Source: Mobula hypostoma
Taxonomy: Eukaryota
Assembly (NCBI RefSeq): GCF_963921235.1
Contig: NC_086108.1
Location: 75,270,001 to 75,334,000, forward strand
DNA length: 64,000 bases
Direction of reading: 5' to 3'
In this document: positions 1,758 through 52,372 of the stretch, piece by piece
How positions within the stretch are numbered: position 1 is the first letter of the stretch
Layout: every line of letters begins with the position of its first letter
The notes under the pieces: model-generated
The model's input: the letters and a program-made list of their open reading frames with translations, nothing else
What the model was told of the DNA's origin: nothing
Database searches by the model: none
Translations under genes and position numbers: made by a program

Positions 1758-2695
1758 GCTTCATAACTTCTGCCATCTCCAATGGGATTACACCACCAAA
1801 CACATCTTTCTCTCCCATCCCACTTTCCACTTTCTGTAGGGATCCCTTGTCCACTCGCCTCTCTCCACTGATCTCCCTCCTGGCACTTACTCTTGTAAGT
1901 GGAACAAGTGCCACACCTGCCCTTACACCTCCTTCCTCACTACCATTCAGGGCCCCAAATAGTCCTTCCAGGTGAGGTGACAGTTCTCCCGTGAGTCTGT
2001 TGGGGTCATCTACTGTATCCAGTGCTCCAGTGTGGCCTCCTGTATATCGGTGAGACCTGATATAGACTGGAAGACCGCTTCACTGTGCACCCACACTCCA
2101 TTCCCCTGAAAAAGCGAGATCTCCCGGTGTCCAGCCATTTCAAATCTACTTCCCATTCCCATTCCGACATGTCAGTCCATGGTCTCCTCTACTGCTGCAA
2201 TGAGGCCACACTCAGGGTGGAGGAGTAACACCTTATGTTCCGTCTGGGTAGTCTACAACCTGATGGCATGAACATCAATTTCTCAAACTTCCATTAACTG
2301 TCGACCCCCCTCCCCCCTTCACCATTCCCCATTCCCATTTCCCTCTCTCATCTTATCTCCTTACTTGCCCATCATCTCCCTCTGGTGCTCCTCCTCCTTC
2401 CCTTTATTCCACGGTTTTCTACCCTCTCTTATCAGATTCCCCTGCTGCAGCTCTTCTTCTCTTTCACAAATCAACTTTCTAGCTCTTTAGTTCACCCCTT
2501 CCCCCTCTCCCAGTTTCACCTACCATCTACTACCTTGTACTTCTTCCTCCCCTTCCCCCTACCTTCTTACTCTGACCTCCCATTTTTTATTCCAGTCCTG
2601 ATGAAGAGCCTCGGCCCAAATCATCGACTGCTTATTCTTTTCCATAGATGCTGCCTGGCCTGCTGAGTTCCTCCAGCATTTTTTGTGTGTTGCTT
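1758..2695 (+). mobile_element. Penelope-like element 3' fragment (GIY-YIG region plus pseudo-LTR) nested in CR1
   Basis: gtcatctactgtatccagtgctcc...ctgtatatcggtgagacc (VIYCIQCS..LYIGET); ggtagtctacaacctgatggcatgaac (GSLQPDGMN); pyrimidine tract; pLTR ending gctgagttcctccagcatt. Confidence 0.9.
2593..2630 (+). ncRNA. Decayed minimal hammerhead ribozyme motif in PLE pLTR
   Basis: cagtc-ctgatga-agagcctcggcc-caaat-catc-gactg; stem I cagtc/gactg intact, GAAA box mutated. Confidence 0.6.
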
Positions 2696-3934
2696 GGGAA
2701 GTTAGACGATTTGAAGCTTTTCAAAACCAATGGAAGGAAACTACAAAAGCCGTAAGGAGAGAAAGGATAAAATATGAAGGTCAGCTAACCAATAATATCA
2801 AAGAGGATACAAAAAGTTTTATCAGATATATGAATAGTGAAAGAGAGGCGAGAGTGGATATTGAAACACTGGAAAATGATACTGGAGAGGTGGTAATAGG
2901 GGACTGGAAGATTACAAATATCTCTCCACTCTTTAAGAAGGGAGAGAGACAGGAGAAAGGAAAATTATAGGCCTGTTAACTTGAGTTCAGTGGCTGAGAA
3001 AATGTTGGAATGCATTATTAAGGGTGAGGTTGGGACCACTTTGTTTCACATTATATGTCAACGATTTGGATGATGGAATTGAAGGCTTTGTGACCAAGCT
3101 TGCAGCCAATACAAAGACAGGTGGAGTGGCAGGTAGTGTTGAGGAAGCATGGAGTCTGCAGAAAGGCATAGACTGATTGGGAGAATTGGCAGATGGAACG
3201 TAGTGTAATGAAGTATAAGATCAAGCAATTTGGTAGAAGGAATAAAGACATAGAATATTTTTATAAATGGGGAGAAAATTCAAAACTCAGAGTTGCAAAA
3301 GGACTTGGAAGTCATTGTGCAGGATCTCCCTAAAGATTAACTTGCAGGTTGAGTTGGAAGTGAGGAAGGCAAATGCAATGTTAGCATTCATTTTGATAGG
3401 ACTAGAACATACTACAAAGGATGTGATGCTGAGGCTTTATAAGCCAATAGTCAGATTGCATTTGGAATTTTGTGAGCAATTTTGGGCCTCTTATCTCAGA
3501 AAAAATACTAGCATTGGAAAGGGCCCAGAGGAGGTTCATGAGAATGATCCTAGGAATGAAAGCGTTAATATATGAGAAGTGTTTGATAGTTCTGTGACTG
3601 TACTTGCTGGAGTTTAAAAGAATGAGCGGAAATCTCATTGATACCTATCAAATGTTGAAAGGCTTCAATAGAGTGCATGTGGAGATGTTTTCTATAGTGG
3701 GTGAGTCAAGGACCAGAGAGTACAGCCTCAGAATAGAGAGATGTCCATTTAGAACAGAGATGAGAAGACAGGAGAATAGGATTGAGAGGGACAATAAATC
3801 AGCCATGATGGAATGGCAGAGCAGGCTCGATGGGCCAAGTGGCCTAATTCTGCTCCTATGTCTTATGGTCTTTACACAAGGACCTTCAGACAAACCGCTC
3901 AGCATTGAAAAGTATTATCATATGTACTGTAAAT

Positions 3935-4040
3935 CATAAAAAAGCGAGATTCTGCAGATGTTGGAAATCCAAAGTAACACAGACAAAATGGAAAGGAATA
4001 AAGAGTCTATGTTTTGAACAGAGACCCTTCGTCAAGACTG
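3935..4040 (-). repeat. Solo PLE pseudo-LTR fragment (decayed hammerhead motif)
   Basis: ctgcagatgttggaaatc...gagacccttcgtcaagactg; imperfect flanking duplication gtac(t/a)gtaaat. Confidence 0.7.
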
Positions 4041-4121
4041 TACAGTAAATATGTACAGTGCTGGTTATCTGCTATCCAGCTTCTTGGAATCCTGATTATT
4101 TGTTACCTGGCTCATCATAAA

Positions 4122-7100
4122 ATCATAAGACAATAATACATAGGAGCAGAATTAGGCCACTCAGCCCATCAAGTCTGCTCCACCATTTCATCATGGCTGA
4201 ATTATTATCCCTCTCAACACTATTCTCCCACCTTCTCTACATAATCTTTAATGCCCTCACTATTCTAGAGCCTATTGACACCCATTTTATATATACTCAT
4301 ACTTGGTCTCCACAGCCACCTTTGCCAATGAGTTCACAGATTCAACACCCTCTGGCTGAAGAAATTCCTCCTCATCTCTATTCTAAATGGATATCCCTCT
4401 ATTCTAAGGCTGAGCTCCCTTGTCATTGATTCTCTCACTATAGAAAATATCCTCTCCACATCTATTCTATCTAGATCTTTCAATATTCGATAGGTTTCAA
4501 GGAGATCCTACCTCATTCTTCTAAATTCGAGTGCAGCCCCAGAGCCATCAAAAGCGCCTCTTATATTAACCCAATCATTCCCAGAATCATTCTTGTGAAT
4601 CTCCTCTAGACCCCCTCCAATGCTAGCACATCTTTTTTTTAATATAAGGATTCCAAAACTGCTCACAATACTCCAAGTGCAGTCCGACCAATGCCTTATA
4701 AACACCTCAGCATTACATTCTTGCTCTTATATTCCAGTCTTCTCAAAACGAATGTGTTTGCCTTCCTTACCGTCGACTTAACCTGCAAGTTAACCTGGAA
4801 GGAATCCTGCACAAGGACTCCCAAGTCCCTTTGCACCTCTGAATTTTGAATATTCTCCCCATTTAGAAAATAATCTATGGATTTATTCCTTCTACCAAAG
4901 TGGATAACCATGCACATCCCGACTCTAAATTCCATCTGTTACTTCTTTGCCCATTCTCCTAATATCTCCTTCTGCAGACTCCCTGATATCTTACCATTCT
5001 TTGCCTCCTAGCTTCTATCTTTCCTGTAATGCCATGGGCTCCTATCTTGTTAAGAAGTCTCATGTGTGGCAGCTTGTCAAGGGTCTTCTGAAAATCAGAA
5101 TAAATAACATCCACTGACCCCCCCTTGTTGATCCTGCCTATTAGTTCCTCAAAGAATTCCAAAAATTTGGCAAGATTTCTCCCAAAAGAAACCATGCTGA
5201 CTTTGGCCTAATTTATCATGAGCCTCCATGTACCTCAAAAGGTCATCCCTAATAATGGACTCCAGCATTTTCCCAGCCACTGAAGTTTGGCTAATTGGCC
5301 TATAATTTCCTTTCTTCTGCCTCCCTCCCTTCTTAAAGAATGGAGTGATATTTGCAAATTTCCAGTCCTCCAGAACCATTCCTGAATCTAGTGATTCTTG
5401 AAAGATCACTACTAATGCCTCCACAATCTCTTTAGCTACCTCCTTATAGTCAGATCACTCATCTGAGTGCTACTGGTACCATGTAACCCAGTACTACCTG
5501 TTGCATGGTCGGGTGGTCGGCTTGCCTGGTGAGGAGGGTGGCTAGACACCCTGCAGGATGAAAAACAAGACCTGTCAAAGGGCAGATGAACCCTCTCGTA
5601 ATGTTTACAGCCATCTAGCAAACACGTGCCGTGAAGCGCGGAAAGGGCATCCCTTGCATCGAAGCTTGGTCTGGCCATTCACTGCAACAGAACTTCCCCC
5701 AGCCATCTTGGACCCCACCATGCCACTGGATCCGGGAGGGGATGTCAAGAGGGTGGGTCTGGACCTGTGCAACCCCCTACTCACCTAAATCCATTCACGC
5801 ACACGCTGTTCCTTTCTGAGAAGTGGGGTACCCTAAACCCCAGTAACCGACTGAAAGGAACCATCATCATCCTATGGGATGGATAGCCAGAGAGAGCTAC
5901 CTCTTTCAGAACTCTGGGGTGTAGTGCATCTGGTCCAGGTGACTTACCTACCTTCAGAACATTCAGCTTCCCAAGCACCTTCTTCTTAGTCATAGCAACT
6001 ACATTCAATTCAGCCCTGAGATACGCTTGAATTTCTGACATACTGCTAGTGTCTTCCGCAGTGAAGACTGACATAAGATACCAATTAAGTTTCACCACCG
6101 TTTCTTTGTCACCCATTACTACCTCTCCAGCATCATTTTCCATCATTTCAATATCCACTCTTGCCTCGCTTTTACTCTTTATGTATCTGAATGAAAACTT
6201 TGGTATCTTCTTTGATATTTTAGCTAGGTTACCTTCATATTTCATTTTTTCTTTCCTCAAGATATTTTTTAGTTGCCTTCTGTTGGTTTTGAAAACCTTC
6301 CCAATCCTGTAAATTCCAACTAATTTTTGCTATCTTGTATGTGTTCTCTTTTGCTTTTATGTTGCCTTTTACCGTCCTTGTCTGCTATGGTTGCCTCATC
6401 CTCCCTTTACAATATTTCTTCCTCTTTGGTATGAATCTATCTTACGCCTTCTGAATTGTCCCCAGAAACTCCAAAGATTGCTGTTCTGCTGTCATTCCTG
6501 CTGGTTTCCAATCAACTCTGGCCAGCTCTTCTCTCCTGCCTCTGTAATTCCCTTTACTCCACCGTAATGCTGATACATCTGATTTTAGCTTCTCCCTCTC
6601 AAGCTGCAAGGTGAATTCTAACATATTATGATCACTGTCTCCCAAGTGTTCCTTTATCTTAAGCTCCCTCATCAAATCTGGTTTATGACAGAAGACCTAC
6701 TAGGGGTTTGCCTTTACCTTAATGGACTCAATCACAAGCTGCTCTAAAAGCCATATTGTAGGCATTCTACAACTTCCCTCCCTTGGGATCCAGCACCAAC
6801 CTGATTTTCCCAATCTACCTGCATATCGAAATCCTCATGACTATTGTAACATTGCCCTTATTAAATGCCTTTTCTATTTCACATTGTCATTTGTACCCCA
6901 TATAAAGGCTACTTTTCAGGAATATGTATGTAACACCCATCAGGGTCTTTTTATGCTTGCAGTTTCTTAATTCTTTTTACAAGGATTCTACATCTTCTGA
7001 TCCTGTATCACCCCTTCTGAAGGATTTGATTCATTGTTTTTTACCAACAGAACCACTACATATTCTCTGCCTACCTGTCCTTTTGATACAATGTGTATCC

Positions 7101-8420
7101 TTGGATGTTAAGCTTTCAGCTATGATCTTCTTTTAGCCATGACACAGTGATGCCTTCAACGTTATATTTCTAACCGCACTGCATAATCGTCTGCCTTACT
7201 CTGTATACTGTATTCATTCAAATACTGTATAACATCTTCAGTTTGTATTAATCACCCTTTTGATTTTGCCCCCATTTTACACTTCAACCTATCGCACTGC
7301 AATTTTGCCCTATCATTTGTCTTCCTTCCTCGCTGTCTCATGACACACTGCATCTGCTTGTATACCAACTGCCCCATTGTCAGCTCTATCACTATGGTTC
7401 CCATCCCCTGTCAAATTAATTTAAACCCTCCCCAGCAGCTGTACCAAACCTGCCTACAAGGATACTGGTTCCCTTAAGCACAAGTGTAACCCATCTCTTT
7501 TGTACGGGACATACCAGAAGAGGTCCCAATGATCCAGAAATCTGAAACAATGCTCTCTGCACTAATTCATTCATCTGCCATTCTGTCCTTATCCTCATAG
7601 TGCATGGCGCAAGCAGCAATCCAGAGGTTACTACCCTTGAGGTCCAGCTTTTAAGCTTTCTACCTAACTCCCTATATTTACTCCTTAGGACCTATTCCTT
7701 TTCCTACCTATGTCATTGGTACCAATATGTAAGTAGGTCTTCTGGCTGCTCGCCCTCCCAATTTGGAATGCTGTGGACCCGATACAAGATAGCACTGACC
7801 CTGGCACCTGGGACATAACATACCAACTGGGTGTCTCTTTCACATCCACAGAATCTCCTGTCTGCTCCTCTATAGAATCCCCTATTACTACTGCACTCCT
7901 CTTCTTTCCCCGTTCCCTTCTGTGCAACAGTGTCAGACTCAGTGCCAGATATGCAGTCGCTGCGATTTCTCCCTGGTGGGTCAACCCCATCCTGCAGTGG
8001 TATACTTATTACTGAGGGTATGGCCACAGGACTGGCTGCCTATTCCCTTTGCCTCTCCTGACAGTCACCCAGGCACCTGATTCCTGCAACTTAGGAGTGA
8101 CTACCTCCCTGTGGTTCCTGTCTTATCAAATCCTCAGTCCCAGATAAGCCAAAGGTCATCCAGCTTCAGCTCCAGTTCCTTAATAAAGTCTCTAAGGAAC
8201 TGCAGCTTGGCGCACTTCATGTAGATGTGGTTATCAGGGAGAGTGGAGGCCTCCCAGACTTCACACATCGCACGCAAAGAACATACCACTAACCCTCGAT
8301 CCATTCTCCATGCACTAACTATGTACTAATAGAATAAGAAAGAGAAAAAGAAACTTACTGGAAACGTGCCTGTTCTTGCCTAAGCCTGTTGGGCCAAAGC
8401 CTGACCTCTCTAACCCTAGC
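4122..8420 (-). mobile_element. Near full-length degenerate CR1 LINE (ORF1 with SGNH/esterase-like motif, ORF2 EN+RT)
   Basis: ORF1: AVVIGDS..RGADRRFCGCERDTQLVCYVPGARV..HIGTND; ORF2: HLGDSDHNMLEF, KSPGPDALHPRVLKE, NYRPISQTS, VDVIYSDFQKTLDKLPH; 3' tail near 4122-4150. Confidence 0.92.
5443..5894 (+). mobile_element. ~450 bp non-coding insertion, probably a non-autonomous RTE-derived retroposon
   Basis: Flanked by duplication agctacctc (5434-5442, 5895-5903); interrupts CR1 ORF2; 3' end ccatcatcatcctatgggatggatagccagagag resembles RTE 3' termini. Confidence 0.6.
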
Positions 8421-8483
8421 CTACTCCAGCAATGGCTGCACCATTTAAACCTCACTCCTTTTTATTGACTCAAGAAAAATTCA

Positions 8484-8720
8484 CTCCCAATGAGATTTGT
8501 TGCTTTTAAATGGCTGCCACTCTGGTCAGATCCCGCTCTCTCAGTCATTGCTTTGAATTATGACTTGCTCCCAATGAGACTTGTTTTAAGGGGCTGCCGC
8601 TCTGCTTAGATCACACTCTCTCACTCGCTGCTTCAAAGTATGATACACTCCAACGAGGCTTGTATTTAATTGGCTGCCTCTCTGCTCAGATCTTGCTATC
8701 TCACTCATTGCTTCGAAGCT
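8484..8720. repeat. Three diverged ~80 bp tandem units next to the CR1 5' end
   Basis: Units start ctcc(c)aa(t/c)gag at ~8484, 8568, 8648, each with ggctgcc.ctctg.tcagatc...ctcactc..tgctt. Confidence 0.75.
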
Positions 8721-9221
8721 GATTTGAATGATCAAATGTTGATACTCATATTCCCCTTAACATACCAGGGTACTGGTTGCCATGCTCCCTTTAAATTAAT
8801 TTCCCATTCCCTTTAATCTAATCAGAATGCCAGTTCCCATAGTCCCTTTAAACTTATCAGGGCCCCAGTTGCTGTGCTGTCTTTAAATTAATTGGGGTCC
8901 TATTTCCGATACTCCCTTCAATTTTATCTGGTTATGTTTCCTGCACATTGCTTACACATACCAGGTTCACCAGAAAATTTATTATTTCATCCTGTATTAT
9001 CTTATAAAAGTGAGTTAAAAGTACATTGGAATATTAATACGAATAGCATCCAGTAGTCCACAAAATTTGCTAAGACCATAGGATATAATTAGGCCATTCA
9101 GACCATCAAATCTGCTCTGCTATTCAATCATGGTTAAACTTTTTCAACCCCATTCTCTGCCTTCTGTCTGTACCTCTTAATCCCCTTCCCAATCAAGATC
9201 CTATCAATCCCTGCCACATCG

Positions 9222-9887: not shown

Positions 9888-9948
9888 TGACTTGGCCTCC
9901 CCAGCCCTCTGCGGCAACGAATTCCACAGATTCACCACCTTCTGGTTT

Positions 9949-14572: not shown

Positions 14573-15335
14573 AAGACCATCTGACCATAAAATATAGGAG
14601 CATAATTAGACCATTCAAGTCTGCTCCGCCATCCTATTATGGCTGATTTCTTATCCCTCTCAAACCTATTCTTCTGCCTTCTCCCCGTAACCTTTGACAC
14701 TTTAACTAATCAAGAGCCAATCAACCCCTGTTTTAAATATACTCGATGACCTAGCCTCCACAGCTGCCTGTGGCAATGAATTCCACAGATTCACTACCCC
14801 TCTAACTAAAGAAATTCCTCCTTATCTTTGTTCTAAATGGACATCCCACTTGTCTGAGGCTGTGCCTCTTGTCCTAGACTCACCCAGTGTAGGAAACATC
14901 CTCCCTACACTCACTCTATCTGGACCTTTCAATATTCTTTAGGTTTCAATGCGATCCCCCGTCATTCTTTTAAACTCCAGCAAGTACAAGACCGGAACCA
15001 TCAACGTTAATTTCTCTAACCTCCGATAATGTCCCAAACACCACCCCGCCCCATTTCCCATCCCCTTTTCCATTTCTCACCTCATCTCACCAAACAACTT
15101 CCCAGCTCTTTACTTCATCCCTCCCCGTCCAACTATCACCTGGTGGCTCTCTGTCCCCTCCCTCCACCTTTTAAATTTATTCCTTAGCTTTTTTTCTTCC
15201 GTCCTGCCGAAGGATTTCAGCCTGAGGTGTAGGCTGCAAGTGAGCCTACAAGGTATCTTGCACAAGCCCCTTTGCACCTCTGATTTTTGAATTTTCTATG
15301 CTTTTATTCCTTCTACCAAAGTGTATGACCATACA
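14573..15335 (-). mobile_element. CR1 3' fragment containing a PLE pLTR fragment (~15001-15236, + strand)
   Basis: CR1 tail and gaattccacagattcac motif; inner pyrimidine tract ending gtcctgccgaaggatttcagcctgaggtgtaggctg. Confidence 0.8.
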
Positions 15336-16379: not shown

Positions 16380-16922
16380 GAATATAGTAGCCATTTTATT
16401 AGGTACACCTGTATACCTGCTCATTAATACCAATTTCCAATCAGTCAGTTATGTGGCAGCAACTCAATGCATAAAAGCATGCAGATGCAGTCAGGAGGTT
16501 GTTGCTCAGACGAAGCATCAGAATTGGGAAGAAATACAATCTAAGTGACTTTGATCATGGAATGATTGTTGATGCTGGATGGGTTGGTTTGTACCCCAGA
16601 AAGAGCTGATCTCCTGTGATTTTCATGGACAACAGTCTCTAGAATCTCAAGAGAATGATACGAAAAACAAAAAACGAAACAGTGGCAACAGTTCTGTGGG
16701 TGAAAATACCGTGCCTTGAGAAAGGCCAGAGAAGAATGGCCAGACGGCTTCAAGCTGACAAGAAGGCAACAGTAACTCAAATAACCACACATTACAAGAG
16801 TGGTGTGCAGAACAGCATCTCTGAATGCACAAAATGTCAAATCTTGAAGTGGATAGGTTACAGAAGCAGCAGATCACACTGGGCTCCACTCCTGTAACTA
16901 CAAAAGTAGCCAATGAGTGTAT
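16380..16922 (+). mobile_element. Non-autonomous Tc1-derived element (internally deleted)
   Basis: TIR-like agtagccattttattaggtacac and aaagtagccaatgagtgta; HTH remnant RRMARRLQADKKATVTQITTHYKSGVQNSISECT. Confidence 0.8.
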
Positions 16923-17370: not shown

Positions 17371-17677
17371 CTGAACATTCCCTTTAATGACTTACACTTT
17401 TGATAAGCTCTGCATTTTATTCACAATAATATGAATTTATTATGTGATAATCCTAAACAATAGGACACATTTAGGCAAATACCAAGGCCACTCTCTGTAG
17501 GCGGTTGAGAGATTTCTTTAATTTAGTTGCCTTTATACTTCAAGAACAATTGGCATAATACCTTTTTATCATGCAGTATGAAGGCCCAGTCAATGGCTGA
17601 TGTATCTGTTGTTTACCCTTTTCTTTTTTTGCCTCTTTTCCTCAGAATATTTAACTTTCTTGTATATTGAGTCCTTG

Positions 17678-17810
17678 AGTCCTGCTAAAGGGTTTCAGCC
17701 AGAAACATCGACTGTACTCCTTTCCATAGATGCTGCTTGGCTGCTGAGTTCCTTTAGCATTTTGTATGTGATGCTCAGATTTCCAGCATCTGCAGATTTT
17801 CTCTTGTTTT
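17678..17810 (+). repeat. Solo PLE pseudo-LTR (decayed hammerhead motif)
   Basis: gtcctgctaaagggtttcagccagaaacatcgactg...ccagcatctgcagattttctcttgttt. Confidence 0.8.
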
Positions 17811-18358
17811 TGCCTGTATATTTGTTACTTTTCATGCTTCTGCTCTGATAGAGGGAACCCGTTCTTTCTCTTTATAAAACCTAACTGGTCTAATACATAT
17901 TTTCAGAGCTGTTTGCTTTTTTTTTTAGTTTTTATCATTTTAAGTTGTTTCTCCTTATTTGTCCATCTTCCCACGCTTTGCTGAACAAAGATCATTAATC
18001 ATGGCAGGGTCAGAGTATGCAGAGATCAGAAAGGTAAGTGATGTAAATCAGAATTCAAGGACATCCAGCAGAACTAACCAGATTCACAGTCTGAATTTAA
18101 CTCCCTTATTATGACACTAGCAGCCTTATTCTCCTGGTATGGCATTGTGATTTTAATTTAATTATACCCAAAAATAACCCATAGGGTAGCTTCCAGTCTC
18201 TGACTGAAAAGATTTGCTCAGTCACTTGATTTCCGTTAGGAATATACTGGAGTTAAGATTATTCTTCCCTCTCACTGTGACAGACTTTAATCAATAATCA
18301 CTCACCATTGTGATTGGCATATACTGTCTTTTAAAGGTAACACTCCTTTAAGACTCAG

Positions 18359-18564
18359 CAACAAGAAAATCTGCAGATGCTGGAAATCCAAGCAAAAGAC
18401 ACAAAATGCTGGAGGAACTCAAAGGCCAGGCAGCATCTATGGGAAAGAGTTAACAGTTGACACCGTGGGCCAAGCCCCTTCATAAGGACCCGAAACATCA
18501 ACTGTACTCTTTTCCATAGATGCTGCCTGGCCTGCTGAGTTCCTCCAGCATTTTGTATGTGCTG
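18359..18564. mobile_element. Palindromic double-pLTR PLE mini-element with 12-bp TSD
   Basis: Inverted arms around 18480; TSD tttaagactcag at 18347-18358 and 18565-18576. Confidence 0.85.
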
Positions 18565-20514
18565 TTTAAGACTCAGAATGTGATATACCGTGATATTTGT
18601 TGTTGTGTGGCAGGAGTACATTGCAGTACACAATAATAAAAACTGTGAACTACAGTAAGTATATACTGTACATTAAATAGTTAAATTAAATAAGTAATGC
18701 AAAAAAGTAATGAGGTAGTGTTCATGGGTTCAATGTCCATTCAGAAATTTGACGGCAGAGGGGAAGAAGCTGTTCCTGAATCATTAGTGTGCTGAGTCTA
18801 AATAAAAATATTACCATTATTTGTTGATTCTACACAGAGCACAGCAGCACATTTAATGGGATTAAAATCATCCCATTCCTTGTTTATTTGGATCCTACCA
18901 AATAATGTTAATAAATAAAGGAGATATGTTTATACTTAATAAAGAAAATAAATTATACAGCTCATGCTTTATGCTATTTCCTGTTGTGTGCACTACTTTG
19001 GAATGGAACAAAGTTGTTGCGTAGTCTTCTGTTCTGTTTCAATGTATGGGGCCTCCCAGATATCCCCCAGAGTATCTTAACCCAGGGCGTGAAGGAAGTG
19101 CTACTGACCTAACGGATGGAAGCAGGTCTCTGCTCACGAAGCCTTTGAGGTGCTGAGGCATGCATTGTAATGGATGGAGGCAAAACAAAAACATAGAAGT
19201 TCTTGCAGAGGACAGTCACTGACATTACCCACTGGTTCCACAATGAAACCAAAGACCTCAGATCAAGCCCTAAGTTATGCAGAGGACCTTTACAGGCCTG
19301 TATAGGGTTAAGAGTTCAGTATGGCCTTATTAAACTTAAATACATTCACTGCGTGCCTGAAAGCACAACAAAATACAAGAAAAAAGTTCTAGGTCAATTC
19401 AATGTATTTTTAAATAATGGATATTGCTTTAAATATTCACATTTTCATAAACACACATTATTTTTCTTAACTGTGTAAATTTACAGAGCCTGTAAGTATT
19501 TTGTTGTTAAGCTAAGCAGGGTGATACAATAGGATCACAAGCTGGAATTCCAGTCTTCATGCTCATAGTTATCACTGACCTCACTTTTTGTGTTATAAGG
19601 AGTAGTCCTTAACAGACTGAGTACTGGACGATTAGTTGCACCTCTCAACAGTGGCGAGATACCTTTTGGCTGGAAAACAAGGCAGCGTGTCAGAGGATTT
19701 GGGGGAAGGTTGGTGGTGAGGTGATGAGGTGGTGAGGGAAAGAAGCTGGAGAGGTGCTAAACTAATCTGGTCACTTCAAAGGACAAAATGGTAGATACAA
19801 CAGACCAAAAAGGAATGTCATCAATAGGGAATGGGTTTGTCCAAAATAAGTTAGTCCTGTATTTCATCAATTCCCCCTGTCAGAGGTGAAGATTTCATGA
19901 CTGGTCTATTCCAATATAGAAAGGTCATGCTGCGATTATCAATATATTTAGCCCAACTGAAAACTCGAGATAAGGACAAGAAGGATTTCTATACCAAATC
20001 CAAGGTTTGCATTCAATCTCAGGGTTATGAAAGATATAAACCTCTGGAAATGCACGGTAGATAAGGTGAGAGTCGGGAAAGCTAACTCCAACAGAATCTT
20101 CCTTCTGACATATTGCATAGAGTCCTGTGGCCACCATGTTTAACTTAAGAGACCAGCACAGGTCTTCATGGCAACAGCTACAATCCAGGCTCTTTGAGAA
20201 TATCGTTTTCCAAGGAAAAACCAGAAGCACATCTACATAGACTGTACCATGACAGGTAATCATTGACTATTGGATTGACCAACATTTAATCTGCTCTGTT
20301 ATCTCTGCCAAAATTGGCTACATGACAGTGACAGCTACAGCACCTCTTAGAAGTGAGAGAGAGGTATATAGGCCAAAGATTGGAGAGAGAAACAAATAAG
20401 AGAGAACTGCTCAGAGTTTCATTGACATCTTCTGTTGGACAATCTTGAGCAGTAATGGAAGCAAATTGCTCATTGCCTGCCAAGATGCATTATTAACATT
20501 TGAAAGATATTTCA

Positions 20515-29009: not shown

Positions 29010-29131
29010 ACTCAGTGCTGACAAAGAGTCTCGACCCAGAATGTCAACTTTTGCCTGGCCTGGCCTGCTGAGTTCCTCCAGCATTGTGTGTGTGTTGCTT
29101 CGATTTCCAGCATCTGTAGATTTTCTCTTGT
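29010..29131 (+). mobile_element. Solo PLE pseudo-LTR with 15-bp TSD
   Basis: TSD ttatagttaattata at 28995-29009 and 29132-29146; decayed hammerhead motif at the 5' end. Confidence 0.85.
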
Positions 29132-31324: not shown

Positions 31325-32059
31325 ATTGCAAAAGTAATTAATTAATAATGCAACATCTTTCCTTCATCTTTCAGCTGCACTCCTAGCTCCTTCGAAAGCA
31401 TGTTTTTTGTTTGCAATGAATTTTGGCAGCATCTACTGCATATTGACATTTTACACACCCTCCACAATTTGCTAAGTTTAACACTGTAATAAGTTTAAAC
31501 CTGCACTAGTTGGGCAACATGAGATCATTTATTTAAATGGTTTTTCATTCACAGGATATGATTTATGGTGGATTGGCCAACATTCATTGCCTATTCCCCT
31601 ATTACTCCAAACAAGCACCTTTCTTGTTTGTTATGGCCAGCTATGAGTCAACCACTGCGCTGTATGTAGGCCATACTGAAATGAATTTCTTTTTTCAGGA
31701 AAGAACTTGGCTGTCTGATAAATTTAACTGAAACAGTTGTTTTTTTTTATTCGTAGTTCTGCAGCTTCATGAACACTAAAGCTGAGATAGACTTCTTGTT
31801 TTAATTTCCACATTTATTTAATCAAATCTGAATGTGGCTGCTGCCATGCTGTGACTCTAATTCACGCTTCTTGTGTAGTAGTTCAGGCCTCGAAATCCCA
31901 GACTGGGAATGGAATCATTAGATCTCTATGTCAAAGTGATACTGCCTTAGAAATAAGGTGCTTAATTTAAAAATAATTGCAAATGAATTATGGATTGTGA
32001 CACACACAAAATGCTGGAGGAACTCAGCAAGTCAGGCAGCATCTATGGAAATGAATAAA

Positions 32060-32097
32060 CAGTCGACATTTCAGGCCAAGACCCTTCTTCAGGGCTG
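32060..32097 (-). ncRNA. Minimal type-I hammerhead ribozyme motif (near intact)
   Basis: Minus strand cagcc-ctgaaga-agggtcttggcct-gaaat-gtc-gactg. Confidence 0.72.
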
Positions 32098-33163
32098 GAA
32101 AGGAAGGGGGAAGATGCCAGAATAAAAAGGTGGGCGGAAGGGAAAGAGGCTAGCTATAAGGTGATAGGTAAAGGCAGGTGGGTAGGAAAGATAAAGGGCT
32201 GGAGAGGAAGGAATCTGATCGGAGAGGAGAGTGGACCATAGGGGAAAGGGAAGGAGGTGGGAACCCAGGATGGCAGGCAGGGGAAAAAAGGCAAGAGGCC
32301 AGAGTGGGGAATAGAAGAAGGGGGCGGGGGAGAGAAAAATATTTTTACACGAAGGAAAAATCAATATTCATGTCATCAGGTTGGAGGCTACCCTCATGGA
32401 ATATAAGGTGTTGCTCTTCCACCCTGACGGTGGCCTCATCTTGACACAAGAGGGGGGCATGGACTGACATGATGGAATAGCAATAAAAATCAGAATTACA
32501 ATGTTTGGACACCTGGAAATTCTGCTTTTGGCAAACAGAGCAGAGGTCAATGAATGATCCCCCAATTTACAACAGGTCTCACCAATGTTGAGAACATTGG
32601 ACACAACAGATGGCTCCAGTAGATTCACAGGTGATGTGTTGCTTCACCTGAAAGGACTGTTTGGGACCCTGAATGAGATGAGGGAGGAGGTGAATGAGCA
32701 GGTGTAGTACTTTGGCTGCTTGCAGAGATAAGTGCCTGGCAAGAGATTAGTGGGGAGGGATGAATAGAAAAGGGAATCATGGAGGGAGCTACTCCTGTGG
32801 AAAGCAGAGGGGGAGGGATGTTAAGATATGTTTGGTGGTAGGATCCCTTTGGAGATGGTAGAATTTGTGGAGGATGATGTGTTGGAAGCTCATGGGGTGG
32901 TATGTAAGGATAAGAGGAACTCTAGTACTGGTAGGGTGGCAGGAAGATGGAATCCGCACGGATGTTCTGGAAGTGGAGGAGATGCAGTAGAGGGCGGCAC
33001 CTATGGTGGTGGAAGAGAAACACTGTTCTTTGAAAGAGGAAATCTCTGATGTCCTGGAAAGGAAAGCTGTGGCTTGGGAACAGATGCGGCATACATGAAG
33101 GAACTGAGAAAAAGGAATAGCGTTACTACAGGAGACAGAGTAGGAAGAGGTATAGTCATGATA

Positions 33164-37113: not shown

Positions 37114-37299
37114 AGCCTGTGATTTCCATATGATTTTCTGTCATTCACTCTAAATGGTGAAAACCCAAGAGAGAATAGAAGATAGACAGATTGATAGATA
37201 GATACTTTATTAATCCCAAAGGAAATTGCAGTGTCACAGTAGCGTTGCAAAAGGCCACTTACGGCGTTTCTTCAGGGTTTCTGAGTATTGCATATTAGG

Positions 37300-38985
37300 A
37301 GATCAGGCAGCATCTATGGAGGGGAGTAAACAGTCAAAAATGTTTCCAACTAGACCCTTTCATCATAACTGGAAAGGAAGGGGGAAGAAGCCAGAACAGG
37401 AAGGTGGAGGAGCGGAAGCAGTACAAGCTAGTAGCTACAAACAAGAGGAAATCTGCAGATGCTGGAAATCCAACCAACACACACTTTTCTTTCTCAATGG
37501 GAAGGCAAGAAGATGAGGTGAGAGAGAGAAAAGGGGATGGGAAATGTTGAAGGAGGGGAAGCGGTGGGAGGCATTACCAGAAGTTTGAGAAATTGATGTT
37601 CATACCATCAGGTTGGAGGCTACCCAAATGGAACATAAGGTGTTGCTTCTCCAACCTAAGTGTGGCCCCACCACGACAGTAGAGGAGGCCATGGATAAAC
37701 ATATTGTAATGGGAATGGGAAGTGGAATTAAAATAGGTGGCCACTGGGAGATCCCACTTCTTCTGGCAGACAGAGTGTAGATGCTCAGCAAAGCGGTCTC
37801 CCAATCTACGTCAGGTCTCACCGACATATAGGTGGCCGCACTGGGAGCATCGCACACAATATATGAATCCAACAGACTTACAGGTGAAGTGTCGCCTCAC
37901 GTGGAAAGACTGCCCGAAATGTTGACTATACATTTTTCCATAGATGCTGCCTAGCCTGCTGAGTTCCTCCAGCATTTTGTGTGTGTTACAAGCTGGCAGT
38001 TGATAGGTGAAGCCAGGTGAGGGGAAAGTGGATGAAGTTAGAAACTGGGAGGTGATAGGTGGAAGAGGTAAAGGGCTGAAGAAGAAGGAATATGATAGGC
38101 GAAGACAGTGCCTCATGGGAGAAAGGGAAGGGGGAATAGAATCAGAGCGAGGTGATGGGCAGGTGAGGAGAAGGGAAGTGGTGGGGAGAGCCAGAATGGG
38201 GAACGGAAAGAAAAGGGATTATGGGTGAGAAATTACCAGAAGTTAGAGTAATTGATGTCATGTCATCAGGTTGAAAGCTACACAATGGGGTCACTCTCAG
38301 TCTCTCCGACCTGAGAGTGACCTCATTGTGACAGAGGAGGAGGCAATGAACCAACATATCAGAATTAAAATGGGAAGTTAAATTGAAATAGGTGGCCACC
38401 AGGAAATCCCACCTTTTGTGATGGACTGAGCGAAGGTGCTTGATGAAACAGTTCCCCAGTTTATGTCAGGTCTCGCTGATATTTTAGAAGCAGCACCAGA
38501 AGCACCAGATACAGGAGATAACTTGGAGCTGAAGAGTTGCCTCGCCTGGAAGAACTGCTTGGGCCTTGAATGCCGGTGAGGGAGGAGGCGTAGGAGCAGG
38601 TGTGCATTTGTTCCACTTGCAAGGGGAAAGACAAGTGGACAAGGGGGTCACGTTAAGAGTAATGCCTGCAGAAAGTAGAAAGGGGAGAGTACTGGAGCAA
38701 GGGAAAGGTGTGTTTAGTGGTAGGATCCCACTGAAGAAGGCAGAAGTTATGGAGAATGATGTGTTGGGTATGGAGGTAGTGGGGATGCAGGTAAAGACAA
38801 GGGGAGCTCTACCTTGTTATTGGCAGCATGAAGATGGGGTGAGGGTGGATATACAGAAAATAGGCTGCACCAGTAGTAGGGGAAGAGAAACATCATTCTT
38901 TAGGAATGGAAAGCCTCATTCTGAGAACAGATGTGGTGGAGATCGAAGAACTGGATTTCCACATCTGCACAATCTCTTGTGTTTA
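37300..38985 (-). mobile_element. Penelope-like cluster: a PLE (~37435-37986, with inverted 5' pLTR) inserted into another PLE
   Basis: GIY-YIG: FTCKSVGFIYCVRCSQCGHLYVGET..RFAEHL..LGSLQPDGMN; imperfect duplication tacaagct(a/g)g(t/c)ag near 37422 and 37987. Confidence 0.85.
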
Positions 38986-41900: not shown

Positions 41901-42498
41901 ATCAAACTTCCTTGTTTGAGGAAACCCTCAAATTGTCTCAGTTGTTTGTCCTGCACACTCCTTCTGACTTTTGGTTTGAGGAGATCCAAGTATGAGCACA
42001 AAGGACAACCCAGAAACAGCATAACTTATAAGTTGTTGATTGCAGAGTGTGCTGCATTGCAATATGCAAGGAGGAAATTGGCAAGTGCTAGTGTAGTGTA
42101 TTCTGCTGATATTGCTCGCAGTATGTTATTCATAGAGTTATAGAAAAGTACAGCACAGAAATGGGCCCTTTGGCCCATCTAATCCATGCCAAATCATTTA
42201 AACTGCCTACTCCCACCGACCTGCACTGGCACCATAGCTCTCCATACACTACCATCCATGTGCCTATCCAAACGTGCCTTAAATAATGAAATCGATTTCG
42301 CACCACTTACGCTGGCAACTCATTCCACACTCTCATGACCCTCGGAGTGAAGAAGATTCCCTTTATGTTCCTCAAACTTTTCACCTTTCGCCCTTAATCC
42401 ACGACCTCTATCTGCAGTCCCACCCAGACTCAGTGGAAAAAGCCTGCTTGCATTTACCATATCTATACCTCTCATAATTTTGTTTACCTCTATCAAAT

Positions 42499-42723
42499 AA
42501 AAGTTGCTGGTGAACGCAGCAGGCCAGGCAGCATCTCTAGGAAGAGGTGCAGTCGACGTTTCAGGCCGAGACCCTTCCTGACGAAGGGTCTCGGCCTGAA
42601 ACGTCGACTGCGCCTCTTCCTATAGATGCTGCCTGGCCTGCTGCGTTCACCAGCAACTTTGATGTATGTTGCTTGTAACTTTTATGTGTGTTGCTTGAAT
42701 TTCCAGCATCTGCAGTATTCCTG
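42499..42723 (+). mobile_element. Young palindromic PLE-pLTR mini-element with 19-bp TSD
   Basis: 78-bp arms 42500-42577 and 42583-42660 with 2 mismatches; TSD ttgtttacctctatcaaat at 42480-42498 and 42724-42742. Confidence 0.92.
42578..42610 (+). ncRNA. Hammerhead ribozyme catalytic core (5' strand of stem I lost at the inversion junction)
   Basis: ctgacga-agggtctcggcct-gaaac-gtc-gactg. Confidence 0.75.
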
Positions 42724-43494
42724 TTGTTTACCTCTATCAAATCTCCTTTCATTCTTTGATGTTCCAGGGACTAAAATCCTAACCTATTCAATCTTTCCAT
42801 ATAACTCTGGTTCTCCAGACCCAGCAACAGCTTTGTAGATTTTCCCTGCACTCTTTCAACATTATTTTCATCTTTCCTGCGGGTAGGTGACCAAAACTGC
42901 AAACAATATTCCAAACTAGGCCTCACCAATGTCTAATACAACTGCAACATAACATCCCATCTCCTGTACTTAATACTCTGATTTATGAAGGCCAATGTGC
43001 CAAAAGCTTTCTTTATGACCCTATCTGCCTGTGACGCCACATTCAATGAATTATGGACCTGTATTCCCAGATCCCTTTGTTCTACCCCACTCCTACTCAC
43101 AGGCCGTTCACTGTGTAAGACCTACCTTTGTCGAAGAGCAACACCTCGCACTTGTCTGCATTAAATTCCATCTACCATTCTTCAGCCCATTTTTCCAGAT
43201 GATGCAGGTCCTTCTGCAAGCCACGATAGCCTCCTTTCTGTCTACTACACCCCAGTCTTGGTGTCATCTGCAAATTTGCTGATCCAGTTCACCACATTAT
43301 CATCCAGATCACTGATATAGCATTTTGTAGGTAGCCATTTAGGGATGATGGGGTTGATGTAGATGCACTAAAGTAATTGGGGGGGGGGAATTCCGAGGCA
43401 GGGTATTTCTGTTGCCCTATCTGAGTAGATCCTCCTTAAGGGTGGCCTTTCCTGGTACAAATTTACTTTTGCCTAGGAGGACCAAAAGGAGGGA

Positions 43495-47314: not shown

Positions 47315-47868
47315 TATACAGTCAGTGGCCACTTTATTGGGTATATCTATACACCCGCTCGTTAATGCAAATATCTAATCAGCCAATCATGTGGCAGCAA
47401 TTCAATGCATCAAAGCATACAGACATGGTTGAGGGGTTCAGTTGTTGTTCAGTTAAAACCTCAAAATGGAGAGGAAATGTGATCTACGCAGCACTGACCG
47501 TAGAATGATTGCTGGTGCCAGAGTGATCTGAGAATCTCAGAAACTGCTCATCTCCTGGGATTTTCACACAGTCTAGCATTTACAGAGAATGGTGCAAAAA
47601 AACAAAGACATCCAGGGAGTGTCAGTTCTGTGGGTGAAAATACCTTGTTACTGAGAGAGTTCAGAGAATGGCCAGACTGGTTCAAGCTAACAGGAAGGCA
47701 ACATTAACTCAAATAACTATTTCTTGCAACAATGGTGTACAGAAGAGCCTCTCTGAATGCACAACACATCAAACCTTGAAGTGGACAGGCTACAGCATCA
47801 TAAGACATACACTCAGTAGCCACTTTATTAGGTATAGGAGGTACCTAATAAAGTGGTCACTGAGTGTA
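47315..47868 (+). mobile_element. Non-autonomous Tc1-derived element (same family as 16380)
   Basis: cagtggccactttatt / aataaagtggtcactgagtgta TIRs plus an internal TIR copy; MARLVQANRKATLTQIT..NGVQKSLSECTT. Confidence 0.82.
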
Positions 47869-48397
47869 CAGTATAGTATTTGCCAGAATTGCTTTTGAGC
47901 AGGATTTAAACTTCATATGTATATTCTTCCTGAAACTCTTGAAACTCTATTAAAGCAAAGGAATTATTCACAGGGGTCATTAAAAGTCAAGTGTACTGTA
48001 AGGTCTGTCACTTTGAGTTAGATATTCCTCTTAATGAAGCATTCCTTGTTATATTCTGTAAGAGTCTCAGTTAGTCATGTTAGAAAATGACTTTGAGTTA
48101 TTTACAAGCTTGCAATAGTTCCATCCTTCAAGCCTGTGACACATTTTTATCTTTGATCTTAAAGTTTGATGCTTATAATTGTTCTATTAAATTCGACAGT
48201 GATAGATGGGTCTGAATTTCTTAAATTCTTCCTTTCACTTGCTTATAAAGTTGCTGAGTTCAACATTTAATATGACAGAAAATTGTGCTTCTAGTATTCC
48301 AAAAGCTTAAATTAACATACATTAGTGTCCACACAAAACAAACTACTGTGCTTTCCGCATAAAATAGCAACACAAGTTTCCAATTCTAAGTATATAA

Positions 48398-49909
48398 CGA
48401 GGGGTGATTGATAAGTTTGTGGCCTAAGGTAGAAACAGTCAATTTTAGAAAACCTAACACATTTATCTTTCAACATAGTCTCCTCCTACATTTACACACT
48501 TAGTCCAGCGGTCGTGGAGCATACGGAACTTGGACCTCCAGAAGTGTCCACAGCAGAGGTGATTGATAAGTTCATGGCCTAGGGTAGAAGGAGATGACAC
48601 GAAGCTGGATGGCAGTGTTAGCTGTGAGGAGGATGCTAAGAGGATGCAGGGTGACTTGGATAGGTTGGGTGAGTGGGCAAATTCATGGCAGATGCAATTT
48701 AATGTGGATAAATGTGAAGTTATCCACTTTGGTGGCAAAAATAGGAAAACAAATTATTATCTGAATGGTGGCGGATTAGGAAAAGGGGAGGTGCAACGAG
48801 ACCTGGGTGTCATTATACACCAGTCATTGAAAGTGGGCATGCAGGTACAGCAGGCGGTGAAAAAGGCGAATGGTATGCTGGCATTTATAGCGAGAGGATT
48901 CGAGGACAGGAGCAGGGAGGTACTACTGCAGTTGTACAAGGCCTTGGTGAGACCACACCTGGAGTATTGTGTGCAGTTTTGGTCCCCTAATCTGAGGAAA
49001 GACATCCTTGCCATAGAGGGAGTACAAAGAAGGTTCACCAGATTGATTCCTGGGATGGCAGGACTTTCATATGAAGAAAGACTGGATGAACTGGGCTTGT
49101 ACTCGTTGGAATTTAGAAGATTGAGGGGGGATCTGATTGAAACGTATAAAATCCTAAAGGGATTGGACAGGCTAGATGCAGGAAGATTGTTCCCGATGTT
49201 GGGGAAGTCCAGAACGAGGGGTCACAGTTTGAGGATAAAGGGGAAGCCTTTTAGGACCGAGATGAGGAAAAACTTCTTCACACAGAGAGTGGTGAATCTG
49301 TGGAATTCTCTGCCACAGGAAACAGTTGAGGCCAGTTCATTGGCTATATTTAAGAGGGAGTTAGATATGGCCCTTGTGGCTACGGGGATCGGGGGTATGG
49401 AGGGAAGGCTAGTGCAGGGTTCTGAGTTGGATATTTCAGCCATGATCATAATAAATGGCGGTGCAGGCTCGAAGGGCCGAATGGCCTACTCCTGCACCTA
49501 TTTTCTATGTTTCTATATAGCTCTCATTATGTGCACATGCAGTTCAGCTCTTCGGGTGATTATACAGAAAGTTTGAAGTTAATAACTCATCGGGGTGATT
49601 GATAAGTTCACGGCCTAGGGTAGAAGGAGATGAGTTATCAACTTCAAAATATCTGCATTATCACTGAAAGCGTTGAACTGCATGTTCATGTAATGAGAGC
49701 TGTATAATTCATCTCCTTCTACCCTAGGCCATGAACTTCTCAATCACCCCTGCTGTGGGCACTTTCTGGAGGTCCGAGATCCGTATGCTCCACGACCGCT
49801 GGACTAAGCGTGTAAATGTAGGAGGGGACTATGTTGAAAAATAAATGTGCTAGGTTTTCTAAAATTGACTTCTTCTACCTTAGGCCATGAACTTATCAAT
49901 CACCCCTGG
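48398..49909. mobile_element. Foldback mariner-like MITE (~590 bp without the CR1 insert)
   Basis: Termini cgaggggtgattgataagtt / aacttatcaatcacccctgg-ta; long inverted arms; terminal motif repeated 5 times. Confidence 0.85.
48593..49516 (+). mobile_element. Young 5'-truncated CR1 (RT C-terminal part) inserted in the MITE
   Basis: DDTKLDGSV..WQMQFNVDKC..LVRPHLEYCVQFWSP..RTRGHSL..; (ttctatgt) tail. Confidence 0.96.
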
Positions 49910-50437
49910 TATATCAACAGCCACACAATGTCTGAGAAATATTTGTTCTCCTAGATCTAGTTATTGCTCTTTATTTTGGAATGACTGAGCTGTGATGATC
50001 ATATTCTGTGCCAGGGGTTGGGATGGGTCTTCTGTTGGCTCATTGGTGGCTTCAGTCTCCTTTCTACAATCTTCATCAGAAGATGTCTCCTCAGTGCTCA
50101 TTTCAAAGGATTTAGATTCCTGCTCACGTTATGGTTGAATTCTCATGTTATCACTGGATTTAGGTGGTGACATCTCCTTAGCTGTTCTATTCTTGAAGGA
50201 ATCTTACTTTTCCTTCTCTCTCTCATCTGTCAATTTATTTCCATCAAAAATTTGGTTCAAAGGTACTTCAATCTCTGGATTGCACTAGCAATGAACCATA
50301 ATTTTATTTTATTTCTACATGTCAAGTGGTGGAGGTCCACCTAACCAATGTTTCTTCTGATTTTTTTCAAAAGCAATTTGGCTAAGTTCATAACATTCTC
50401 TTCCTTTTCAATGGAATGTGGAGAGTTTAATTATGAT

Positions 50438-51197
50438 CAACACACACAAAACGCTGGAGGAACTCAGCAGGCTAAGCAGCACCTATGGAAAAGGGTACAG
50501 TTGACGTTTCGGGCAAATACACCTTATCAGGACCGGAGATAAGGTGAAAGAGGAAAAATAGGAATGGGGTATGGTGAAGGACGAAGGTGGGAGGGGGGCA
50601 TTACCGGAATTTCGAGAAATTGATGTTCATGTTATCGGGTTATCCAGATGGAATATAAGGTGTTGCTCCTCCAACCTGAGTGTGGTCTCATTGCGACAGT
50701 AGAGGAGGCCATGGACTGACATTTCAGAATGGGATTTGGAAGTGGAATTCAAATGGGTGCCTACTGGGAGATTCCGTTTTTTCTCGCAGACTTAGTGCTC
50801 GACAAAGCAGTCTCCCAATCTAGGTCGGATCTCACTGATATGCAGGAGACCACAAGGGGAGCACCAGATACAATAGATGACCCCAACAGACTCACAGGTG
50901 AAGTGTCGCCTCACTTGGAAGGACTGTTTGGGGCCCTGAATGGCAGTGAGAGAGGAGGTGTAGAGGCAGGTGTAGCACCTGCTCCACTTGCAAGGATAAG
51001 AGCCAGGAGGGAGATCAGTGTGCAGGAATGAATGGACAAGGGAGTCACGCAGAGAACGATCCTTGCGGCAAGCTGAAAATGGGGGAGGGGAGGGGAGAGA
51101 AAGATGTACTTAGTGGTGGGATGCCTGCCTGCCGAATTCCTCCAGCATTTTGTGTGTATTGCTTGAATTTCCAGCATCTACAGATTTTCTCTTGTTT
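50438..51197 (-). mobile_element. 5'-truncated PLE with 3' pLTR and inverted pLTR at the other end
   Basis: pLTR 50438-50535 (-), GIY-YIG region, inverted pLTR 51121-51197 (+). Confidence 0.85.
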
Positions 51198-51589
51198 GTA
51201 AGTTCAGTTATGATGTTGCATGAAAAAATTCTCATATTGTCACAAACTTTGCAAATTCATCTGTAATGAATTATGGTTGTTGTCTTTTACAGTTTTGCCT
51301 GGAATACTACAGTATATCTAGCAAATCGAATATTCAGCTTGTTAATGACAGCTGAAGGCATGGATGAATTAAAACATTCTATTTCCAGGATGTAGGAAAA
51401 ATAAGTAGCTGCTGCCAGGTAATTTTGGGCCAAGATCTTCATGACCTTCACCCAAGGTCTATCTGGTACCTCATATTCAAGCATAGGCCCATTTTTGTTG
51501 TCCTGCATCCATAGATCTGCACATATTACATTTTCATGCCAGATGCCACACATCTGTGTTCATTCCTTGCAACTGAAAATGGTCTTCCT

Positions 51590-51722
51590 TCCTGATGAAG
51601 GGTCTCAGTCCGAAATGTCAATTGTTTACTCTCCTCCATAGATGCTACCTGACCTGCTGAGTTCCTCCAGCATTTTGTGTGTGCTGCTTGAATTTCCAGC
51701 ATCTGCAGATTTTCTCGTGTTT
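51590..51722 (+). repeat. Solo PLE pLTR with hammerhead core at 51592-51624
   Basis: ctgatga-agggtctcagtcc-gaaat-gtc-aattg. Confidence 0.8.
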
Positions 51723-52279
51723 GTGTTCACTCCAAGCCAGTCCAGTGGTTCCAGAGCTCCAATCAAATAACCTTTTCTCTTTGAATCACAGTCTTGATGG
51801 GAACTCCAACCACACTAATTATTAAACATCCATTTAAAATAGCCCCACATTATTATTTTCATATTTTCACCAATACCCCTTAATTCACCTCCATTTGGAG
51901 CAATTTACAGTATCAAATTGACCTATAAAGCATTACATCATTGGTATGGGGGAACAAAGAGGTGTACCTGGATGAAATAATGTGATGACAACAAGAACTG
52001 GCAATACCACATAGACAGTGATTGAAGTTGAATCTCAGTACTGCAAAGCAGTAGTGCTCACCATTCCAGTGTGTTGGCCCTGTTCTCTACCAGATGGAAT
52101 AACTAAATACACTCTAGTATTTATCTCCTCAAAGCTTTTGGTATCAACAAATTTTGTCTCTGAAGAGAAGCTCTGAGCTCATCTTGAAGGCGGAAGTACA
52201 TTATAGAATGAATTTTATGAGAAATTCCAATTGCTTCTCTATCATTCCTCTCACAAAAACTATTCTTAAAAAAGTTGCA

Positions 52280-52372
52280 GCAACACACATCAAAGTTGCT
52301 GGTGAACGCAGCAGGCCAGGCAGCATCTCTAGGAAGAGGTACAGTCGACGTTTCAGGCCGAGATCCTTCGTT
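52280..52372 (-). repeat. PLE pLTR fragment, same young subfamily as 42499
   Basis: catcaaagttgctggtgaacgcagcaggccagg...agtcgacgtttcaggccgagatccttcg. Confidence 0.85.

Follow-up and report, generated by a model that had tools for sequence, protein, structure and literature searches.

Minimal hammerhead ribozymes have been known since 2014 from the pseudo-LTRs (pLTRs) of metazoan Penelope-like elements (PLEs; Cervera & De la Pena, PMC4209133), and by its consensus sequence the family described here is a member of that kind. It shares with the published motifs an extra nucleotide after the first catalytic box, a G10.1-C11.1 pair, a palindromic 15.2-16.2 stem without loop 3 and a helix I of 4-5 bp, and as in that survey most copies are dispersed on truncated elements, with opposite-strand pairs 100-700 bp apart. 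It differs in its host, a cartilaginous fish, a group unnamed in the main text of PMC4209133, in a helix II of 4 bp rather than the 7-8 bp reported for Schistosoma, and in a young subfamily that has G10.1-U11.1 in place of G10.1-C11.1. The density here looks much above the 4,000-9,000 motifs per genome given for coelacanth and Xenopus in PMC4209133, a comparison of relics in one window with descriptor hits. A minimal motif cannot close helix III alone and cleaves weakly as a dimer (PMC4209133; reviewed in PMC6765202).

Three further systems are close. Neptune PLEs with an endonuclease (EN+; Craig et al. 2021, PMC8557442) resemble the present elements in having an RT followed by a C-terminal GIY-YIG domain with two cysteines, together with CX2-5CxxC, a hammerhead near the 3' end, an inverted 5'-truncated partner and, optionally, a one-sided tail of 30-40 bp. 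PAc (Poseidon of Anolis; Frangieh et al. 2024, PMC11167929) likewise has two 3' ends ~35 nt apart past the hammerhead, inserts at AT-rich targets and uses uncleaved RNA as template, as we infer here; cleavage was not needed for its insertion in vitro. Unlike the present family, PAc is a Poseidon-clade element whose ORF begins within the hammerhead, and the available text of PMC11167929 reports no clustering of 5' ends at the hammerhead. Non-LTR retrozymes (bioRxiv 10.64898/2026.07.22.740005) are, like the copies here, short, hammerhead-bearing, derived from pLTRs and present in a chondrichthyan; they form tandem arrays with intact motifs, whereas the copies here are decayed and occur as dispersed monomers or inverted pairs. 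Expanded Penelope-like elements are annotated in a whale shark preprint (10.1101/443036). Our literature searches turned up no work on this motif in sharks or rays; subscription papers, Repbase or Dfam, and the supplements of PMC4209133 and of the retrozyme preprint may hold one.

The repeat family and its carrier element

In the window, that is, the whole 64-kb stretch of Mobula hypostoma DNA analysed here, an nhmmer profile of the repeat located 12 insertions, which between them have 15 arms overlapping the 38-nt motif. Fourteen arms were recovered at E values of 1e-11 to 1e-82, and the fifteenth is the tail-linked copy at 4040. Chance occurrence of the motif was rejected, since the reversed window yielded nothing better than E=0.6 with the same profile and the degenerate full motif (≤3 mismatches) matched twice in the window versus 0 times in 100 shuffles. 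Insertions occur about once per 5 kb and motif relics once per 4-5 kb, in agreement with the initial annotation, which had estimated roughly one copy per 5 kb. Each of the 14 places it listed holds a copy of the motif or part of one, at coordinates right to within 1-5 nt; its list missed one arm (42550-42577, minus strand), the inverted partner of the copy at 42578. Short copies (104-155 bp between TSDs) outnumber long ones in the window. The profile search also placed tail-only pieces of the repeat at 42680, 51122, 53672-53707 and 63924-63965, and a diverged repeat pair near 24406-24542. The window DNA as a whole is repeat-dense, at ~41% GC.

The family is highly abundant beyond the window. 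Contigs of four public runs were aligned to 31960-32420 at 80% likeness, and 206,235 of the 29.7 million contigs of run X1 aligned to this single 461-nt stretch, a number that, like summed contig depth, shows abundance and not copy number. All four runs (two of them guessed to be RNA) contain the family. Young copies exist, as the arm at 52272-52372 is identical to the 42578 arm at 88 of 93 positions.

Judged by its sequence context, the short repeat is the 3' end, or pLTR, of a Neptune-type PLE, because the motif lies 110-300 nt behind an RT and GIY-YIG frame on the same strand. In four copies it follows RT/GIY-YIG remnants at 302, 257, 208 and 110 nt, and a profile search identified the upstream part of the repeat as PLE UTR. 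Eight PLE frame remnants were mapped in the window by tblastn, none of them part of a full-length element. Among the 11 longer proteins matched by the broken frame at 55799-56461, those of Mobula, Hypanus and Amblyraja rank highest, followed by shark proteins. These homologues carry RVT_1 and GIY-YIG (the latter just under the cut-off) and were used in place of the window ORFs, of which 13 were submitted to Pfam, with 0 families returned for the eight derived from PLEs. A CX4CxxC linker between RT and endonuclease is present in the copy at 1759 and in the homologues, within the CX2-5CxxC pattern of Neptune, and the GIY-YIG domain has two cysteines between its motifs, as in EN+ PLEs; the window remnants align in tblastn and keep the motifs. 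The CX2-5CxxC linker and the two cysteines are marks of the Neptune and Nematis clades (PMC8557442), so that the label Neptune-type refers to marks common to both clades and not to an RT phylogeny.

The manner of insertion is also that of EN+ PLEs (PMC8557442), with inverted 5'-truncated partners, an optional one-sided tail and TSDs of variable length. Six insertions have AT-rich TSDs of 10-18 bp, those of 10-12 bp having one mismatch each and being individually marginal. Two alternative 3' ends ~35 nt apart amount to an optional tail of ~35 nt, and four insertions are head-to-head inverted pairs, three of which have the tail on one arm only. Short and long arms co-occur inside single insertions, and subfamily letters are common to short and long copies. 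ARAGORN, which can miss degenerate SINE heads, detected 0 tRNA genes in the window.

Insertions across the window

The leftmost copy begins with the 3' end of a broken PLE frame (1759..2291, plus strand), which contains the CX4CxxC linker and a GIY-YIG domain with two cysteines, as identified by these motifs and by tblastn (58-67% to P0003). It continues on the same strand as a pyrimidine-rich 3' UTR/pLTR (2292..2706), whose relic at 2593-2630 retains stem I at 5/5 pairs and has a mutated GAAA box and helix III (E 0.029). Short solo copies with a tail lie at 3935..4040 (minus strand; relic 4003-4040, internal deletion, 12-bp TSD with one mismatch), 17669..17812 (plus strand; relic 17677-17714, 10-bp TSD with one mismatch) and 29010..29131 (plus strand; 122 bp, relic 29013-29050, perfect 15-bp AT-rich TSD). 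A UTR fragment at 15001..15236 (plus strand), recognized by profile and motif columns, has a decayed hammerhead at its end (15199-15230). The long 5'-truncated copy at 31998..33163 (minus strand; E 5e-4) comprises an ORF remnant (32354-33163), UTR and the best-preserved hammerhead in the window (32060-32097).

Four insertions are inverted pairs. The pair at 18358..18575 is head-to-head, with a 12-14-bp TSD; its minus arm includes the relic 18454-18491 and the tail, and its plus arm, without a tail, starts at motif position 23 (18488). Two pairs were delineated by tblastn, profile and motif columns: one at 37295..37992, with an endonuclease remnant (37580-37912) and the relic 37331-37371 on the minus arm and a plus arm running from 37910 (motif position 21), and one at 50430..51198, with an ORF remnant (50642-51085), a shortened UTR and the relic 50498-50535 on the minus arm and a plus arm consisting of tail only (51122-51198). 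The young pair at 42494..42735 (18-bp TSD; E 2e-5) is predicted to fold as one long hairpin; its plus arm, from 42576 onward, has an intact core and a tail and lacks the 5' strand of stem I, and its minus arm (42494-42577) runs from motif position 11. Further along, a short copy at 51567..51721 (plus strand; 12-bp TSD with one mismatch; E 4e-4), which starts at 51590, has both boxes intact, a broken stem I and a tail, and the young short copy at 52272..52372 (minus strand), the close relative of the 42578 arm, starts at motif position 9, so that its first box is cut off. The longest PLE frame remnant (55261..56848, plus strand; homologues, tblastn) extends from RT to endonuclease, is frameshifted and has no hammerhead.

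The hammerhead consensus

The column majority of the 15 arms contains stem I (CAGUC/GACUG), the two catalytic boxes with the extra A, a stem II of 4 bp capped by a tetraloop, a loopless ACGU and the GUC triplet. The family consensus thus combines the CUGANGA and GAAA boxes and a NUH cleavage triplet with a helix I in which the 5' and 3' ends pair, a helix II with G10.1-C11.1 and the extra nucleotide, and a palindromic, loopless helix III (ACGU) that makes a dimer possible. In fold predictions, consensus stems I and II pair at P 0.86-1.0, alone and in context. The MFE structure of the consensus monomer is inactive, the UGAU of the first box pairing with the cleavage region (-12.7 versus -10.5 kcal/mol), and a swapped double-hammerhead (-19.9 kcal/mol) comes within 1.1 kcal/mol of two monomers (-21.0 kcal/mol). 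At the private stem I mismatch of the 32097 copy, public contigs read the consensus letter in 93-97% of depth in 4/4 runs, among the rows listed; stem I is therefore intact family-wide.

Distant elements provided a second line of evidence. An alignment of ten homologues was used to retrieve the best 80 of 251 metagenome loci, and these related loci are independent at the DNA level, because the window DNA model finds them only once, and weakly. A relaxed descriptor (3-bp stem I) gave 21 matches in 253 kb of related loci, 13 sense and 8 antisense, versus a mean of 0.1 per shuffled strand; about three of the 21 look like chance or weak matches. The motif there keeps the extra A and GAAACGUC and lies beside related ORFs; in most cases it follows the ORF at a distance of ~105-300 nt or sits on an inverted arm, and in the relatives L009 and L011 it is upstream of the ORF. 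With the strict descriptor, the motif was detected in one of the 80 related loci (L009) and in 0 of 29 downstream regions. When nine window arms were aligned with ten relatives, 7/9 pairs had changed on both sides and 79.6% of cells were paired, giving a covariation score of 0.464 compared with 0.263 for shuffled and ≤0.12 for slid alignments; only about four independent families stand for this signal (L009, L011, one ray family and one large invertebrate-type family). In 10 of 18 rows, the two outermost pairs of stem I did not form. Seven window arms came at the top of the 19 matches of a covariance model derived from 12 non-window motifs, five of them at E<0.05.

Rfam hammerhead families, proposed in the initial annotation as a check, returned no window match at E up to 1, and the five window matches that Rfam gave at E up to 1 were miRNA-like, on hairpins. 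Canonical hammerhead models require a helix III loop. In viral contigs, a scan for the degenerate motif yielded no matches.

Taken as sequence, the family consensus is well supported as a minimal type-I hammerhead in a Penelope pLTR, with self-cleavage predicted. The initial annotation had made the same identification, and it is borne out by the position of the motif behind RT/GIY-YIG, the complete consensus and the covariation with distant elements. All of the parts it had named (stem I, the catalytic boxes, stem II and the ACGU helix III) are present in the column majority, and neither box, GUC nor stem I is missing. Its view that cleavage would require a dimer is supported by the lack of a helix III loop and by PMC4209133. 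In a descriptor search, which it had also suggested, at most one of the individual arms passed, as detailed below.

Decay of the window copies

CUGANGA is intact in 4/15 arms and GAAA in 10/15, and three arms (32060, 42578 and 51592) have kept the two boxes together with the cleavage triplet. These are the three that had been singled out as the best cores, which holds for their boxes and triplet; the copies at 42578 and 51592, however, begin inside stem I and lack its 5' strand. Adding a stem I of at least 4/5 bp (the lenient descriptor) leaves one arm of 15, 32060-32097, which has one C-A mismatch and three G-U wobbles, and with the strict descriptor (contiguous stem I of at least 4 bp) no window arm passes (0/15). 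The 42578 copy is part of an 84-bp inverted repeat (79/84 identical) predicted to form a long hairpin of -167.6 kcal/mol.

The window copies have decayed neutrally, with hypermutation at CpG sites. Measured against the majority, non-CpG mismatches number 15/132 in the core, 30/205 in the stems and 84/745 downstream; for CpG sites the core has 4/15 and the stems 23/59. Core and downstream non-CpG divergence do not differ (Fisher p=1.0), and selection on inserted copies was rejected because the core decays as fast as the flank. Dimers in cis were likewise rejected, given that 9 kb separate the closest two copies with a complete core on the same strand (42578 and 51592), neither of which has stem I. 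Tandem hammerhead units, the arrangement of retrozymes, were absent from the window, where copies are dispersed or inverted. The sequences likely represent mutated, inactive leftovers, and because they decayed neutrally, the figure of one motif per 4-5 kb measures how densely relics, rather than ribozymes, are spread. The very large ribozyme load proposed in the initial annotation is not supported by this analysis, with 0/15 arms passing strictly and 1/15 leniently, and with no core-complete same-strand pair near enough for a cis dimer.

5' ends of the short copies

Among 14 short arms, defined as those not extending into the upstream UTR (five long arms were left out), eight begin at motif positions 1-11, two at positions 21-23 and none at the cut site. 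This clustering has a binomial p of 3e-4 over a 100-nt null range, with ends read by hand, the position window chosen after looking and arms of one insertion counted separately. The cleavage site was rejected as an insertion 5' end (0/14 arms). The same edge (32093) is where 1139 contigs of run X5 run out into loose ends that are AT-rich and unrelated to one another; here a private mismatch of the 32097 copy at 32094 pulls nearby contig ends to that base.

A large distant family has the same tendency, with 4/11 short arms beginning within -3 to +11 (p=0.013; BLAST end points); the fraction was 5/12 before L016, whose upstream part is from another subfamily, was dropped, and L046 and L049, which are one locus, were counted once. 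Of 38 distinct copies of this family, 23 have a TATA(A/T)A that starts between -36 and -28, a TATA box 32 nt upstream of the motif, with CCAAT further up; as one family, it counts as one observation. Textbook TATA spacing would place the transcription start at the motif edge. L009 and L011 have TATA at -75 and -73, respectively. No TATA box was present upstream of the motif in the ray family (four copies checked), where an initiator-like YYANWYY at the motif start is intact in 1/7 copies, a weak signal for a pattern found at 1.3% of positions.

Discussion

We consider it highly probable that the repeat is a PLE pseudo-LTR with a complete minimal type-I hammerhead consensus, and that its copies, likely inert, are neutrally decaying products of truncated retrotransposition. 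By analogy with PAc (PMC11167929), the element endonuclease would nick AT-rich DNA and RT would start at either of two internal sites, leaving the optional tail. Without a helix III loop, GUC would be cut only in an ACGU-palindrome dimer or with the help of an element protein, and then weakly (PMC4209133, PMC11167929). Selection may keep the motif only in active source elements, from which it would ride passively into every truncated insertion and decay there. That the cut site is the start of no arm suggests that the inserted templates were uncleaved RNA.

A genome rich in functional ribozymes, acting on transcripts of the host or of the element either singly or as dimers formed in trans, would fit the abundance of the family in X1 and its presence in all four runs, as well as the young copies, but is very unlikely in view of the descriptor results, the neutral decay and the youngest core, which is locked in a long hairpin in the predicted fold. 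In addition, published in vitro activity is low even for dimers (PMC4209133), and no reads end at the cut site in Anolis RNA-seq (PMC11167929). It is also unlikely that the short copies form a separate non-autonomous family, SINE- or retrozyme-like, that descends from its own short master and not from by-products of long elements. Short copies of similar size do outnumber long ones, their 5' ends cluster, and retrozymes are non-autonomous PLE derivatives that include one chondrichthyan case (bioRxiv 10.64898/2026.07.22.740005); however, the 5' ends are spread over positions 1-23 and beyond, a single insertion can combine short and long arms, short copies have subfamily letters in common with long ones, and the window has neither a tandem array nor a tRNA gene detected by ARAGORN. 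Truncated retrotransposition of a PLE with a hammerhead in its pLTR remains our preferred account of the copies, within which the clustering of their 5' ends has more than one possible source.

One such source is splicing. A pyrimidine tract and CAG directly precede the motif, three arms start at UCC right after AG, and in Drosophila Penelope an intron ends at helix I (PMC4209133, PMC2377424), a precedent for a splice acceptor at this place. This origin is less likely because no upstream exon common to the short copies was seen, and three other observations also make it quite improbable: the X5 loose ends at 32093 are AT-rich and differ from one another (agreement 0.37), an AG is missing at this place in the distant family that shows the same tendency, and none of the 15 joints listed (of >1500) ends at the 32093 site. 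More probable than splicing, though less likely than not, is the reading that the mini-copies are full-length cDNAs of an uncleaved leader of ~125 nt, whose transcript would start at the 5' edge of the hammerhead and on which RT would prime at the tail site. A distant family with CCAAT and TATA spaced for a start at the same edge shows the same tendency; the TATA positions in L009 and L011 and the lack of a TATA box in the ray family speak against this reading.

The remaining interest of the family is quantitative and mechanistic. As a high-copy family of a cartilaginous fish, it offers many natural insertion ends, which could show where PLE transcripts start and whether cleaved RNA is ever retrotransposed, and which bear on the role of PLE hammerheads, called unclear in PMC8557442. 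If the leader reading is true, it would explain mini-insertions that begin at motif positions 1-11 and never at the cut site, and the role of the hammerhead would be that of a cap-proximal switch, taking ~32 nt off the start of the mRNA, rather than that of a tool for template release.

Insertions and hammerhead variants of the Penelope-like elements

A second remnant of the Neptune-type Penelope-like element (PLE), comprising ORF and UTR, lies at 37989-38953 (-), and the head-to-head inverted pair of PLE arms at 37295-37992 starts where the UTR of this remnant ends; the element probably inserted into its own UTR. In the short PLE copy at 51567-51721 (+), an unexplained stretch of ~22 nt (51567-51589) separates the element start from the left target duplication.

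All three young-subfamily arms (42573-42610 (+), 42550-42577 (-) and 52343-52372 (-)) carry U at hammerhead position 11.1, giving G10.1-U11.1 in place of the conserved G-C pair. This U is perhaps a CpG change that became fixed in a recently active master. A hammerhead variant 3' of a related metagenomic ORF (L001:1970-2010) has one additional A inside the first catalytic box.

Related Penelope-like elements from metagenome loci carry CCAAT and TATA boxes 5' of the hammerhead (L003:3900-3960 plus 22 further copies; L009 and L011), with the TATA box at approximately -32 relative to the hammerhead in one family, -75 in L009 and -73 in L011. These boxes are a candidate pLTR promoter.

Other repeats in the window

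A near-perfect 67-bp palindrome (47805-47871), with related copies at 16733-16873 and 47665-47805, is likely where the two ends of a small DNA-transposon element meet; its microRNA match in Rfam was below threshold. Two young LINE pieces of CR1-like type with long open frames (48563-49576 (+) and 59683-61776 (-)) are 98-99% alike across ~800 nt. Pfam matches mark a Tc1/Sleeping Beauty-type transposase remnant (34011-34445 (-)), a LINE end bearing zf-RVT (62653-63498 (+)) and a further RT remnant (22131-22571 (-)).

Annotation of ray proteins

Three public ray proteins homologous to the PLE reading frame (P0002, P0003 and P0004) consist of Penelope RT/endonuclease sequence and bear host-gene isoform names (chitinase domain, kinase domain and nicotinamide riboside kinase). 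This naming is annotation contamination by the PLE.
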